A stretch of 64,000 nucleotides of DNA from Escherichia coli (GTDB lineage: Bacteria; Pseudomonadota; Gammaproteobacteria; Enterobacterales; Enterobacteriaceae). Below are positions 54,001 through 63,000 of this stretch, one piece after another. The stretch's first letter is position 1. Each line of letters begins with the position of its first letter. The stretch lies in NCBI RefSeq assembly GCF_003018255.1, contig NZ_CP027440.1. One strand, written 5' to 3'. Position numbers: made by a program.

Positions 54001-57000
54001 GCCGCTACCAGAACCGCCGAAGGAGGTACGCCAATGACCTAGCCTGAAGCATTTGCAATTGTAGTGGCTGCCATTTCGATCGCACTGATTGTTTTTGCGA
54101 TTTGCCGCTGGGGGTAAAATAGTTCACCTGCATGGAGATTTGATGCCGGGGAATTGTGGGGGAGCATTCAAACCTCTCCCCTTCCCGGTTAAAGACTCCA
54201 TTGCTTTGCGGTCAGAGAGATACATCAGCTTCATCAGCTTAATGAAACGCATAGATCCGCCATGCTTTTTCAGCAAATACGCTGCCATTTGCGCAACTTT
54301 TTCTTCATTAAACATAAATCGGCTCTCTGTCTCACATGAAATACTCTTTCTGACTATATGTTAATAGCTCCGGTTATTACAGGTTAATGTGTGTTTATTC
54401 CTTAATCAGCCCCGCACTTCCGTACGGGGCCATTTCTGTTAATCCACTCCCACTTTTTTGTTGTACTCGCGGTTAAAGCGATCCACGGCAACCTTCATAT
54501 CCCGCTCTACCGATTTCACTATCGCCGCCTGCTGCGCCAGACTGAGAGAACTGTCGGCATAAATGGCATCACGCTGTTTACGCAAATCCTTCAGTCTCTT
54601 CCGGGTATCCTGCATAAGCCCGTTCATCGACAATTTTCCGTTGTTCTCGTCAATGAACGCCGTTCTTTCTGCACCGGTCAGACTCTTCAGCTCTGCGTGA
54701 TACTGCGCAATCTCTGTCATCCGGTCGTACATCTTCTGCTGGTCTGCATACGGCATCACCTCCCCCGAAATTTTCCCCAGGAAGGGCACCTGCTGTTCCG
54801 GTATATCAATACCATTCAGCGATTTCACCGCCGCATCCGTGGTTTTGGAAATGAAGCGCCCTGTCCCTCCGGAGATATAGTCAATCCAGAATTTCAGCGA
54901 TTCCGGTGTGATATCCACCGCGCCGGGACGGTACTGGCTGCCACCTGAGAACGCATTCAGCCAGGATGCAAACGCCTTGTACGCTTCTGGCGTTGAACGT
55001 CTTCCCAGCTGGCTGTCAGGTTTTGGTGTACCAAACGGCATGTTCTCCTGGTAAATCTGCGCCCCCATGAAGTTTTCATTCATGGCAAGGTTCGCAAACG
55101 GACGCAGAATGGTCGGCGCTGCATTTTTCAGCAATGCCCCGGACAGTGTTTCCGACGTTTCACTGCCCACAGGACTGAATGCCCCAAGCACACCACCAAC
55201 AACATTACCGGCAGCACGTGACGCCGTCAGGTCGCCCGCTGCCACACCTTCAGCGGTATGACCAAGCAGGAAGAAAACGTTGTACCCGTAGGGCAGAGGA
55301 ATACTCCAGTACTCCCCGGCCTTGCCCCCGAACATCGATTTCATAATGACGAGGTTACGCTCTTTCACATGAGACGGTACTTTGTCATACCAGTTAACCC
55401 CGTCATCATCCTCACCCGCCACACTGCGGTTAAGCGAGCCAAGCAGATAACCCGCTCCCACAGCGGCAAGCGCGATTTTCTGCGGTACATTCAGATTCTT
55501 CCAGCGAAGGCGCTCCGGTAACGGCCCCTCACCATTGAGATGCCCGAGCGTTCTCACCAGGTTTGCCGTCCCCTGAATGCTGGCGTTGGCGAACATGTAC
55601 AGCGAGTTCATCAGCGCCCCCTGCTCACCACGACGGTTAAAGTTCACCGTCATGTTTTTGGCAAGAGACGCCGCCTGCTGGCGTGACAAACCGGCATCAC
55701 GGGCATGTTTATAGGCAGAAAGACGCAGTGCGTTTTCAACCGCGCCGTTGGCATCCTCGACCAGGTTCAGGAACGAATTCCATGCACCGATACTCTGGCC
55801 TTTCCATCCCCCCTTCGCCAGCGATACAAGGCGATCCATTTCCTTCTGCTGGCCTTCAAGGTCACCCATGTTAAACCAGCCGGTTTTACCACCGTCCTCA
55901 ACAAACTCTTTCCACACCTTCTGCCACTGTGCACCTTTGCCCGTGAGGGTTTTACCCCGCAGACTGGCATACACGGCTGACATTGCTGAACGGCTGTCTT
56001 TCACCACGGCCAGCGCGGATAAGTTATCCAGCCCCTTCAGTTTGCCGTCACTCCTTCCCTGTTCAGCCTTCAGGTTCATCACCGCTGTCTGCACGTCACG
56101 GATGAAGTTACTGACCAGAAATTCCGGGTTATACGACGTGTTCACCGTTGCCAGGAATCGGTTAACTTTCCCCAGCGTACGAACGAAGGCGTTACTGGTT
56201 TCCGGTCCCATATTCTTCATCGCACGCATCAGACGCGGGTCATGGAGTTTGATGTAGTACGTTTTGCCGTTCTTTTTGGTGGTGAAGTAGCGATCTGCCA
56301 TCATTGCCATCGGCACCGGACGTTCAACAACTTCGCGACGGGTTTCACCGGTTTCCGGATCAACACGCTCTGCAATCGCACGCATGGTATCCGGTTTGTC
56401 ATCGGTGAATACCTGCCAGTAATCCCTTTCGGGATTATCCTGCACCAGTTTCAGGAAGGCGTTACCCACTTCATTTTTGCGATGGCGGATCAGCGATTCG
56501 CTCAAATCCTGTATCGCCTGCGTGGACGGAGACTGTGCACGGGATGCACGGCCCATCGCCTGCCTGCTTTCACGTCCGCCGATGGTGAAGCCCTTACCCG
56601 TGCGGGGCAGTGACACCACACCGTCAACATCCTGCCCTTTCAGGGGGACGTAGTAACGGTAGGCTTTCTGCCAGGCATCCACCACGCCGCTCTCTTCCAG
56701 TCCGGACTCACGGATAAGCTCACGACGACGGGCCAGCATATCGTCAACAATCCCTGCCAGACGGTCATACTGTGCCTGTTTGCCGCTGTTACGCACACGC
56801 TGCATGATTTCCGCCGCTTCCGCGTTGGTCATCCCCGAACCGCCGTCCGGCATTTTCGGGTTGATTTTCGCGATATGCGCGTTACGTTCCGGCGCGTGAC
56901 GGGCGTAGAGGTACTCATCCAGATCGGCCTGCGCAATCTTATAGTCTGCCAGCAATTTAGCCAGTGGCTGAACGTAGCGCTCCTTCATCACGTTCAGGTC

Positions 57001-60000: not shown

Positions 60001-63000
60001 GCTCAGCGGTTGCGTGAAATAATCCCTGTCTTCCAGCGTTTTACCCAGTGTTTCAGCAAGCTTTGCATAACGGTGTTTTGCCGCCCCCTCAATCTTCTCG
60101 CCAAAATCTTCAATTTTTTTGCCTCTGACGGCACCTTCGCGTACGGAACCTTCCACGTCAGTGGCGGCAACTGTTTCAGATTCAGATGCGCTTGTCTCAG
60201 GCTGCGGGATGTCGCGATTTTCTTCCGCCTGTCGGCGAACTTCTGCCTGCCGGGCGAGTTCAGGCAGTGAGTCACGTACAGTGCGGGGGAGTGATTCAGG
60301 ACGGGGAATACTCACATTACGGGTATTATCAGGCGCCGGAAGTCCTTCACGCACCGGTGCTGTCGCGTTCTGCGCATCCGGTGACGGCAGACCACGACGA
60401 ACAGTGTCACCCTCGAGGGTTTCCCCCTGACGACCAGCGGCGTTTTCCGGTGTCTGCGCGCGTCCTTTCTGGAAACTCTGGCCCTTAACCTCACCGGTTA
60501 TGGTAAAACGACCACCACGTCCGGCCTGATTTTCATCCGGCGTACGTGCCACTTCTCCCGGTAACGGATATCCCTGTCCGGGATGAATATCGCCGGGAGC
60601 GGGCAGGCGTGGACGTTCCGTTAACTCCTGCGCTGTCGGACCGGCATCACCTTCAGCCATCTGTGAACGCACAAGCTCTTCCGGTGTCGGCGCGTTGCCA
60701 CGGGCAAGGCGGGCCTGTACTTCTGTATCATCCCCCGTAAAACCACGGAATCGCGGGTCACGCATGAATGCTGGCTGTTCCATCGGGTCAGCATCAGCAA
60801 TGCGCTCTCCTTCAGCCAGGGTGTTAATGGTTTCCGTTGCCACATCTTCAGAGAACGCCGGATTATCCATTTCAACGGCATACTGGTTCTCGCCTTTCTT
60901 CACTACGGACGGTTTCAGGCCGGTGGCGCTGGCATTGCGGAAAACGTCGCTCCCCATGGCGCTTTTCTCATCCGTGAAATAACGGTTGTCCGGACGCACC
61001 TTTTCAATGCGTTCCGCTGGTCTGGACGCACCATTCCCGTTGATTTCAATGCGAACTTCATCCGGGTCGCGGAACCGCACTGTCGGGTAAATACTCCCGT
61101 TGCCATCCTCCGCATTTTCAGGCTGTGACTGTGCTTCCGGCGTCACTTCCTGTTGTGGCCGAATGACGTCACGTATTGCCTGTAACTGCTGTTCTTCAGC
61201 CTCAGTGAGCCCCTCTTTCTGGCTGAGTCTGCGGTATTCCTCAAGCAGTTCCGGGCGCGGCTTCGCCTTCAGCTCATCCATCACAGCCTGTCGCTTCGCC
61301 TGTTCGTCCAGTTCATTTAATAACTGACTGGCGGCTTCCCGGCGATGAACAGCAGACGCATCTCCCTCCTGAGCCATATCCGCATCAGCATACTGTTCCA
61401 GAAGCTGCTCGCGGTTCATCCCCTGCATGGCTTCACGATGCTGCGCCACCGGATCAACCGGTTCGGGTTGCGGAACAGTTTCGTCCTGCGACACTGTTTC
61501 AGCATCACGCATGGCGGTTTCTTCTGCGGCCTGACGTCTGCCACGATATCCGGCAACCGCGCCAAATGGAGCACCCATCACAGCACCAAGAGTACCACCT
61601 TCGATTGTTGCGTCAGCCACGCCCTCCCAGGGCGACACATCCATTCCGGCAGTCTCACGCAGTGCCATGTTTTCCTGGTAGCGCGAATAGCCACCCTGCG
61701 CCGCATTAATCGCCCCCTGTTCCGTGGCATTTCTGATAATGCCGCTCTTAACGCTCTTCGCCGTGCCCCGCATCGCCAGATTAAGCAACTGAGCATCGCC
61801 CAGTTTTGCCGCCATGGCATTCACAGCCAGCAATTCAGGATCTGTTGCCAGCTGCGCGCGCACCTCATCGGCAACACGCTCTTTTGCCAGATCCATTTTC
61901 TGGCGATCAGTAAGCTGTGCGTGCTGCGGATCGGCGTCAATGGACAAAAACGTCTGCTGAAATTTCGGTGACTGCGCCAGCTCAGAGTAATCCGCATTAA
62001 GAACAGCATCTGCTGCCGCCATTGCACTATGCCCCTGTGCACTGGCTGTGGAATGGGTGATCAGACCCGCCTGGAATAAATCCGGCATTTTTTTATCGAC
62101 AGCTTCTGCTGCCAGTGCGGTAGCTCTTTCCGGCTGCATCCCTGCCGCGATGTATTTTTTCTCCAGCCCGGCGGTCAGCACTTTTCGCAGAGTGACATCA
62201 CCCAGCTTTTTAGTCACACCGCCTGCAACCATATCCGGCACAAGCGCACCAATCAGGTTAACCCCTTTCGCTACCCAGACCGCTGAATCATCATATCCTT
62301 CAGTCATCGGTGTATTCAGCGCCCGCTGCGCCCCCGGCGACATCTTATCGGTCAGCCATTCATCCGATACTTTAGCGCCATCACTGACTGCCTTGCCGGT
62401 TGCCTTCAGACCTTTACCGACAGTATCAGTCACCGCATTCTTACCATCAGGCAGAGTATCGATGACCTCATCAGCCCCCTTGCTGCCACCGGCAAAAATA
62501 TCCTGAACAGTTGCGACACCCGGCAGCCCCATACGGCTGAACTCATTTAAAATACGCGCCCCTGTTTTCACTGGGCTTTGAATCATCGCATCACCGAGTC
62601 CACGGGCCATTTCCCCTGTTCCGCGGACAGACTGGGCGACACCTTTCCCCATAGTTGGTAATACATCGCCCAGGCTGAACGAAGTGCTGTTGTCCTTCCA
62701 GCGATTGGGGTCGGAGAAAAACGCATCATAGCTGTCAGTCTCGCCAGGCTGCTGAATGTTCAGACTGTTGCGGTTCTGGTTACCAAATTGCGCTTCAGGG
62801 CGCTGTTCATCGGAATAAGCCATACTGACTCCATAAAAAAACCCGGCACAATGACCGGGTATCAGGAAATGGTATTAACGGGAAGGGTGAATTACTGCGC
62901 GTAATTCTGTTTCAGACCACGGATAAACTCAGATGCAGAGGCTGCGCTATCATCTCTGGCCTGTTCACTCTTAGCCTTTTGAATACGGAGAAAATTCTCA

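Follow-up and report, generated by a model that had tools for sequence, protein, structure and literature searches.

We analysed a 64,000-nucleotide (nt) stretch of Escherichia coli DNA (assembly GCF_003018255.1, contig NZ_CP027440.1), referred to here as the window, and within it a giant gene carried on the minus strand by a prophage related to the short-tailed Shiga toxin (Stx) phages. An earlier note, made from the sequence alone, had described it as a single open reading frame (ORF) of 8.4 kb, the largest of the window, and this was borne out: the 2,794 codons contain no internal stop, the second largest ORF encodes 808 amino acids (aa), and a GGAG ribosome-binding site lies 5 nt ahead of the ATG at 62823. 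The gene also lies inside an inserted element as proposed, since the chromosomal genes rspAB-ynfA-F end at ~49.9 kb, phage genes begin at 50.4 kb, and phage genes and a homologue of ORF79 of phage Sp5 surround it.

Two hairpins flank the gene. The first (62834-62860, minus; ACCCGG-TCATTGTG-CCGGGT, then seven or eight T) resembles an intrinsic terminator and sits in the 68-nt gap between the stop codon of the ORF79 homologue (62892-62894) and the GGAG/ATG of the giant gene, whose transcription may require late antitermination or be attenuated at this point. The second is a GC-rich stem-loop with no T-run (54409-54430, minus; GCCCCG-TACGGAAGTG-CGGGGC), 9 nt past the stop codon.

The earlier note could not assign the gene to a characterised family from the sequence alone. 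It is the orthologue of Sp5 ORF80/ECs1242 and of Φ24B gp47, with which it shares a length of 2,792-2,794 aa, the upstream neighbour (ORF79, phrog_601), the domain set and the position at the end of the late operon. The family profile phrog_616 matches the protein end to end (profile positions 1-2793 of 2793), and NCBI labels it an 'LPD5' or 'LPD38 domain-containing protein'. The search for full-length homologues that had been suggested returned, by megablast, 186 phage records at 100% query coverage, all of them short-tailed Stx-converting phages or close relatives (VT2-Sakai/Sp5, Φ24B, ArgO145, the PA series, Shigella 75/02), and the gene was found in 425 of 5,426 complete E. coli genomes. 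The window copy is nevertheless divergent from the Sp5 and Φ24B alleles, as every phage record is 90-95% (about 93%) identical at the nucleotide level; compared with ArgO145 gp44, the protein is 93.7% identical with two gaps, and the differences fall mostly in aa 1-50, 851-1000 and 1801-1850. A near-identical allele (99.3%) was found in one E. coli genome only, 2014C-3307 (NZ_CP027368.1). That allele (16001-24384 of the stretch examined) is marked by RefSeq as a frameshifted pseudogene, while the window copy is intact. Two candidates were discarded during identification: ECs1228, which is the tail fibre ORF67 and not the giant gene, and ΦXacm4-11, a T7-like phage that is not a relevant relative.

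The orthologues have been studied by genetics and proteomics. Mondal et al. (2016; PMC5155283) constructed deletions for all Sp5 genes whose function was unknown. Their ΔORF80 mutant (ECs1242, 2,793 aa) retained excision and the packaging of DNase-resistant DNA, gave zero plaques and zero lysogens on E. coli K-12 MG1655, and could be complemented; the ΔORF79 phenotype was the same. Since loss of the Sp5 orthologue abolishes infectivity on K-12, the protein must have a core role in delivery or morphogenesis, and the suggestion that it is only an accessory anti-defence effector does not hold. In purified Φ24B virions, the spectral count of gp47 was second only to that of the major capsid protein (2026 preprint, bioRxiv 10.64898/2026.04.10.717836, supplementary table), in agreement with the packaged protein that the earlier note had envisaged, and its signal peaked in the top gel slices, indicating mostly full-length protein or large pieces. 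It was unseen in the cryo-electron microscopy map, the tail was fully modelled without it, and the authors proposed that it is an encapsidated ejection protein; gp48, the ORF79 homologue, was present in the same virions at substantial counts. Emptied particles make up about 40% of the Φ24B preparations. Packaging has thus been seen, in the literature, for the Φ24B orthologue, and the gene analysed here is encoded among virion genes.

Table 1. Features of the window at and around the giant gene
Feature	Position in window	Strand	Remarks
Whole giant ORF	54439..62823	minus	2,794 aa, 308 kDa, 0 cysteine; orthologue of Sp5 ORF80/ECs1242 and Φ24B gp47
N-terminal conserved module, aa ~130-430	61534..62436	minus	N-terminus of 2,000-4,600-aa relatives
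Acidic Pro/Gln/Ala-rich linker, aa 431-860	60244..61533	minus	pI 4.7; defined by composition, no Pfam match
Region upstream of LPD5 plus LPD5, aa ~861-1193	59245..60243	minus	Pfam LPD5 E=2.3e-45; AF2 pLDDT mostly >85
CLCA_X-type zincin-like domain, aa ~1194-1445	58489..59244	minus	C-terminal helices correspond to Pfam LPD1
Second HExx(x)H domain, aa ~1465-1690	57754..58431	minus	Domain family without a name; RHEIIHH at aa 1550-1556 (nt 58156-58176)
MuF-C/PBECR domain, aa ~1695-1842	57298..57741	minus	RelE/BECR-like predicted RNase fold
C-terminal conserved module, aa 1881-2794	54442..57183	minus	Mostly α-helical; LPD38 at aa 2477-2682, E=6.7e-48
Antirepressor Ant	50451-51110	plus	Lambdoid early-left gene
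Ea22-like ORFs	51623-54037	plus	Lambdoid early-left genes
Upstream neighbour, homologue of Sp5 ORF79/ECs1241 and Φ24B gp48	62892..64000, cut by window end	minus	phrog_601 E=1e-165

Pfam matched the protein at LPD5 (aa ~1051-1200), LPD1 (~1361-1440), MuF_C (~1750-1842) and LPD38 (~2477-2682), and every one of these belongs to the domain set of the polyvalent proteins described by Iyer et al. (2017, J Bacteriol), so that the polyvalent architecture suspected earlier was recovered. AlphaFold2 (AF2) models consisted of separately folded domains connected by low-confidence linkers (confidence given as the predicted local distance difference test, pLDDT). The region containing LPD5 is the N-terminal part of a mobile LPD5-zincin-LPD1 unit that also occurs as solo proteins of ~480 aa, and our corrected map places the protease-like domain between LPD5 and LPD1.

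Two HExxH motifs, which the earlier note had called zincin-like, are present at residues 1284 (ALAHEWFHSLDN) and 1551 (LRHEIIHH), against 0.03 occurrences expected by chance from the protein's own His and Glu content; only the first is conserved as HExxH across its family. The NCBIfam family CLCA_X matches aa 1182-1437 (E=3e-45), with a score of 154.7 bits that falls below NCBI's whole-protein cut-off of 260 because the match is here one domain of a giant protein. HEWFHSLD lies at aa 1284-1291 (nt 58951-58974) and is followed, as had been noticed, by EMAARAFE at aa 1375-1382 (nt 58678-58701); H1284, E1285, H1288, D1291, E1375 and E1382 were invariant in 61 of 61 homologues, and a zincin-like fold was found at the site. 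The HExxH followed by a conserved Asp is also the pattern of the predicted CLCA_X zincins described by Lenart et al. (2013, PLoS One), which are mostly borne by phages, prophages or plasmids, often within very long proteins. For that family activity is predicted, with no measured activity reported in the same paper, and the domain of the giant protein is likewise a predicted protease.

At the second site, in contrast, the HExxH is not conserved. Alignment of 23 diverse homologues of aa 1465-1690 (alignment A3) gave the family motif R-H-E-x-x-x-H-[HY]-G, that is, H-E-x-x-x-H, from which HExxH arises by loss of one residue in the enteric subgroup only; a few members lack the first His. E1552, H1555 and E1607 were invariant and E1614 nearly so. 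The alignment and its profile had no match in Pfam or among PDB sequences, and hhalign between the two domains gave a probability of 8%, with the strand-plus-HExxH-helix register aligned, which is not evidence of homology. The AF2 topology (α-β-α-β-β, then the motif helix) would be compatible with a small zincin, and we regard the domain as a conserved, probably metal-binding one rather than a demonstrated zincin.

For the next domain, MuF-C/PBECR, both a profile match and a RelE-like fold were found, and RNase activity is predicted. The Φ24B preprint (bioRxiv 10.64898/2026.04.10.717836) calls MuF-C a metallopeptidase domain and bases on it the idea of peptidoglycan degradation; by original definition and by fold it is a RelE-like RNase domain and not a peptidase, and the protease-like unit of the protein is CLCA_X at aa 1194-1445.

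The two ends of the protein carry conserved modules of another kind. In the N-module, aa 181-203 (AVWVAKGVNLIGALVPDMVAGGV) form a hydrophobic helix and aa 406-427 (TIEGGTLGAVMGAPFGAVAGYR) a glycine-zipper-like segment of the pattern G-x3-G-x3-G-x3-G-x-R; the invariant residues of the module are W183, G264, G342/D343, N385 and G413/G417 (alignment A4). Pfam gave no match in aa 1-1000 or with the N-module alignment, and the N-module profile had no sequence match in the PDB. Behind it comes the long acidic linker that had been remarked on earlier, which is weakly conserved in distant relatives and probably disordered. The C-module, the last 914 residues, was modelled as a single confident unit (pLDDT 86.7, predicted template modelling score 0.83); it includes a hydrophobic helix (aa 2446-2468) and had no significant Foldseek or sequence match among solved structures. 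Solved structures were also searched by sequence, with the whole protein as query and with separate profiles for the N-module, the central region, the second domain and the C-module; nothing significant came up, and the best match, 3a8r (E=3e-4, over helices), was judged spurious. As the earlier note had stated, there is no NTPase P-loop: the Walker A motif GxxxxGK[ST] was not found, and no NTPase or ATPase family matched in Pfam, NCBIfam or PADLOC. PADLOC, whose library models defence and not anti-defence proteins, gave no match of any kind.

An exhaustive search with aa 1-1039 retrieved 347 relatives, many of them 2,000-4,600 aa long. In the mapped relatives, the segment corresponding to aa ~140-470 is always N-terminal and the C-module or its core (aa ~2180-2426) is C-terminal, and what lies between them differs from one relative to another. 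The C-module remains conserved at identities as low as 33% (coverage ~98%) and follows a variety of upstream domains, among them ART-PolyVal, methyltransferase, InPase, MuF_C and LPD5/LPD1; the second HExx(x)H domain often stands directly before it. Judged from these alignments, the family architecture is that of a fixed chassis, formed by the N- and C-modules, with exchangeable cargo. In the phage collection, the C-module was found in Stx phages, in 101 Vibrio phages (~60 kb, 42% identity), in 31 Ralstonia phages and in 10 Burkholderia phages, and more distantly in podophages of Bacteroides and Bacillus megaterium and in a virus recorded from Methanosarcina. Records of the Stx-phage T=9 major capsid protein lineage numbered 104 for Vibrio, 31 for Ralstonia and 10 for Burkholderia, and this near-equal distribution indicates that the giant gene travels with a GP4-like structural module; the capsid, portal and tail of Φ24B resemble those of Ralstonia phage GP4 according to its authors (bioRxiv 10.64898/2026.04.10.717836). 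Gene order is conserved as well: in E. coli and Vibrio phages, a ~80-aa glycine-zipper protein and a 420-470-aa ORF79-like protein (29% identity over 108 residues between the two hosts' phages, E=9e-13) precede the giant, and the gene ahead of the giant in Ralstonia phage Claudette encodes a 'virion structural protein' of 509 aa.

The complete absence of cysteine from 2,794 residues has a probability of ~7e-14 at the 1.08% cysteine frequency of the chromosomal ORFs of the same window. In 89 relatives with 1,800 aa or more, 23 of 254,900 residues were cysteine, and 76 of these relatives had none; cysteine is likewise missing from the small glycine-zipper protein and from the ORF79 homologues. 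The same holds for N4 gp50 (3,500 aa), gp51 and gp52 and for T7 gp15 and gp16, with a single cysteine in T7 gp14, while N4 replication proteins contain 1.1-1.4%. Cysteine is not mentioned in the ejection-protein review that we located. Its absence may mark proteins that have to travel the tail channel and the oxidising periplasm in an unfolded state or one domain at a time.

We compared the giant protein with the known systems that it resembles. Like the virion RNA polymerases N4 gp50 and DEV gp71, it is a giant (3,400-3,500 aa in those phages), multi-domain and bead-like, encapsidated as judged from its orthologue, cysteine-free and encoded beside smaller virion proteins; an N4-gp56-family capsid protein is present in the same phage, and the order of the N4 and DEV ejection operons parallels that of the glycine-zipper, ORF79-like and giant genes. 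It differs in lacking an RNA polymerase domain and any detectable similarity in sequence or fold, its cargo being a zincin and an RNase-like domain, and whereas ejection has been demonstrated for N4, here we infer it from the genetics and proteomics of the orthologues. In a second parallel, T7 gp14, gp15 and gp16 come from three successive genes, small, medium and large, that close the block of structural genes; the largest product is enzymatic, and cysteine is almost absent. T7 gp16, however, has 1,318 aa and a transglycosylase domain, no homology to it was detected, and no ordered core formed by the Stx-phage giant was visible on the portal. We took the lack of cysteine and the small-medium-large gene row as marks of an ejection protein, which are our own working criteria rather than an established definition, and the giant shows both. 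Lastly, polyvalent proteins also combine LPD5, LPD1, MuF-C/PBECR and LPD38 in one polypeptide. In this class LPD38 is listed as phage-specific and a metallopeptidase hub domain is proposed to cut the polyprotein (Iyer et al. 2017, J Bacteriol). The giant differs from them in that its N-terminus has the other conserved module in place of a MuF-N, portal or ArdC-N domain, and in that its orthologue is essential rather than accessory.

Taken together, orthology, genetics, proteomics, gene order, cysteine exclusion, domain architecture, co-distribution with the capsid lineage, the bead-like domains and the zincin and BECR folds suggest that the giant is probably an encapsidated ejection ('pilot') protein of a short-tailed Stx-type (Sepvirinae) prophage, carrying effector cargo. 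Orthology, domain folds, architecture, synteny and composition were computed here, and essentiality and virion abundance are taken from the literature on orthologues; from these we infer an internal location, ejection, a chassis role of the termini and the enzymatic activities. The protein would be packed inside the capsid and, after release of the tail needle, would exit one domain after another, as beads on a string, by way of the portal and tail channel. The DNA, the small glycine-zipper protein and the ORF79 homologue would probably leave with it. The N- and C-modules would act as a delivery and docking chassis for capsid incorporation and for crossing or extension through the envelope, and the exchangeable middle would supply enzymes acting in the infected cell. 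Of these, the CLCA_X zincin-like protease may process the polyprotein into functional parts or act against a host target, and the second HExx(x)H domain and the RelE-like (PBECR) putative RNase would be further cargo.

Shiga toxin genes spread among E. coli on short-tailed Stx phages, whose 60 kb of DNA must cross the envelope; because ~14% of the phage genome is devoted to the giant, which is essential and reaches high amounts in the virion, it is the obvious candidate for the delivery machine. Both the gene and its interpretation as a packaged protein are already in the literature, with the genetics published in 2016 and the virion proteomics and the ejection proposal in 2026, so that the finding is real and not new. 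Our additions are modest: the corrected domain map, the non-conservation of the second 'HExxH', the chassis-plus-cargo architecture and the cysteine-free signature in common with N4 and T7.

Several observations weigh against an ejection protein. Mutants of the P22 ejection proteins keep normal tails, and the main difficulty is the tail-less appearance of the ΔORF80 particles. Their heads looked normal and were not bound by an anti-tail-fibre antibody, and the authors proposed a role in tail formation (PMC5155283). Neither AF2 model was like any solved ejection protein, with all Foldseek matches at E>0.1, and the hydrophobic segments are marginal transmembrane candidates (Kyte-Doolittle peaks of 1.2-1.4). 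The C-module core is also present in the Bacillus podophages and the Methanosarcina-recorded virus, indicating that it is not specific to a Gram-negative periplasm; a periplasm-spanning function, as suggested in the preprint (bioRxiv 10.64898/2026.04.10.717836), is less likely for it than capsid docking or membrane crossing. Ejection of the giant or its orthologues into the cell is a deduction, moreover, and the protease and RNase activities are predictions.

The tail-less appearance of the ΔORF80 particles keeps a morphogenetic role alive, possibly alongside ejection. As the sole explanation, a factor that completes or attaches the tail or processes virion proteins, perhaps through its zincin, and stays with the particles without being a DNA-delivery device, seems to us rather unlikely. 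It would account for the DNA-filled heads, unbound by the anti-tail-fibre antibody, that both ΔORF80 and ΔORF79 give (PMC5155283), a virion-borne protease could explain the otherwise unexplained proteolytic cleavages of the decoration protein gp84 in the Φ24B virion, and the catalytic residues of CLCA_X are invariant. However, high abundance in the virion together with absence from the symmetric tail and capsid map is easier to reconcile with an internal cargo than with an assembly enzyme; many relatives have the N- and C-modules and lack the zincin unit, so that the conserved function is not proteolysis, and cysteine exclusion is common to proven ejected proteins.

It is similarly improbable that the giant does no more than act, like P1 DarB, as an injected polyvalent effector for anti-defence or host takeover, dispensable for DNA delivery and of importance only in hosts that carry restriction or other defences, although all its Pfam matches are to polyvalent-protein domains and the cargo differs among relatives as an arms race predicts. 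The C-terminal part is weakly similar to phrog_10089 'DarB-like antirestriction', and the Ralstonia and Burkholderia homologues are so labelled, but this label rests on the common C-module, and the DarB methylase and helicase domains were not found here in Pfam or NCBIfam. Deletion of the orthologue, moreover, kills both plaque formation and lysogeny on K-12 MG1655, for which K-12 defences are a possible cause.

To our knowledge, podophages have no tape measure. A conventional tail fibre, a tape measure or an AAA+ ATPase powering tail assembly, for which the large size, the position at the end of the late operon and the COG1483 AAA+ match reported for ORF80 by Mondal et al. (2016; PMC5155283) might speak, is very improbable and was rejected together with an N4-like RNA polymerase, as no motif or profile matched in Pfam, NCBIfam or PHROGs, Walker A is missing and the Φ24B tail is complete without the giant; the check for a tail protein set out in the earlier note was thus negative.

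Beyond the probable ejection role of this one protein, a wider reading is possible, which we offer tentatively and consider doubtful as a whole. The giant could stand for a widespread and so far unrecognised class of 'ejectosome-effector fusions', each made as a single polypeptide, in T=9 podophages of the GP4/Stx/Vibrio lineage. In such a fusion, a fixed, membrane-active N-terminal module and an equally fixed ~900-residue C-module of novel fold would form the delivery device, and exchangeable enzymes (zincin, RNase, ADP-ribosyltransferase, methylase) would be threaded in cis into the host before the DNA. The same tentative class would take in the core relatives in the Bacillus podophages and the Methanosarcina-recorded virus. 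If this were true, near-total cysteine exclusion would be a general and usable signature of phage proteins that pass the tail channel.

With respect to the neighbouring genes, the ORF79 homologue has no cysteine in the part that lies within the window. Its counterpart Φ24B gp48 carries the tentative label 'transcription factor?' (bioRxiv 10.64898/2026.04.10.717836), and a partner virion or ejection protein of the giant is the more probable identity. Two genes upstream of the giant, the ~80-aa protein annotated as 'bacteriocin' (ArgO145 gp46, 10390-10641 of the stretch examined) ends in a long hydrophobic glycine-zipper tail, and its Vibrio phage counterpart occupies the same position (2990-3223 of the stretch examined) with 43% identity. 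In Φ24B virions the 86-aa 'bacteriocin' gp49 was detected at trace level and dismissed by the authors as a contaminant (bioRxiv 10.64898/2026.04.10.717836); the glycine-zipper protein could be a small membrane component of the ejection set.

On the other side, lambdoid early genes (an antirepressor, Ea22-like genes and others) occupy 50.4-54.4 kb on the plus strand, and the giant gene converges on them. In the Stx phages the giant gene is adjacent to attR, whereas the window copy has these early genes downstream instead: similarity to Stx phage ArgO145 stops at 54402, ~85 nt before the attR position of that phage, and neither attR nor an integrase was found at the prophage end beside ynfF (window 49938-54438). 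A truncated ynfG is annotated beside the prophage in the matching E. coli genome. E. coli 2014C-3307, the closest genome by its giant gene, differs in the stretch from 52.0 to 54.2 kb, and this difference, together with early-left genes at a ynfF end that lacks attR and integrase, indicates that the element in the window is a mosaic or rearranged relative of the Stx phages.

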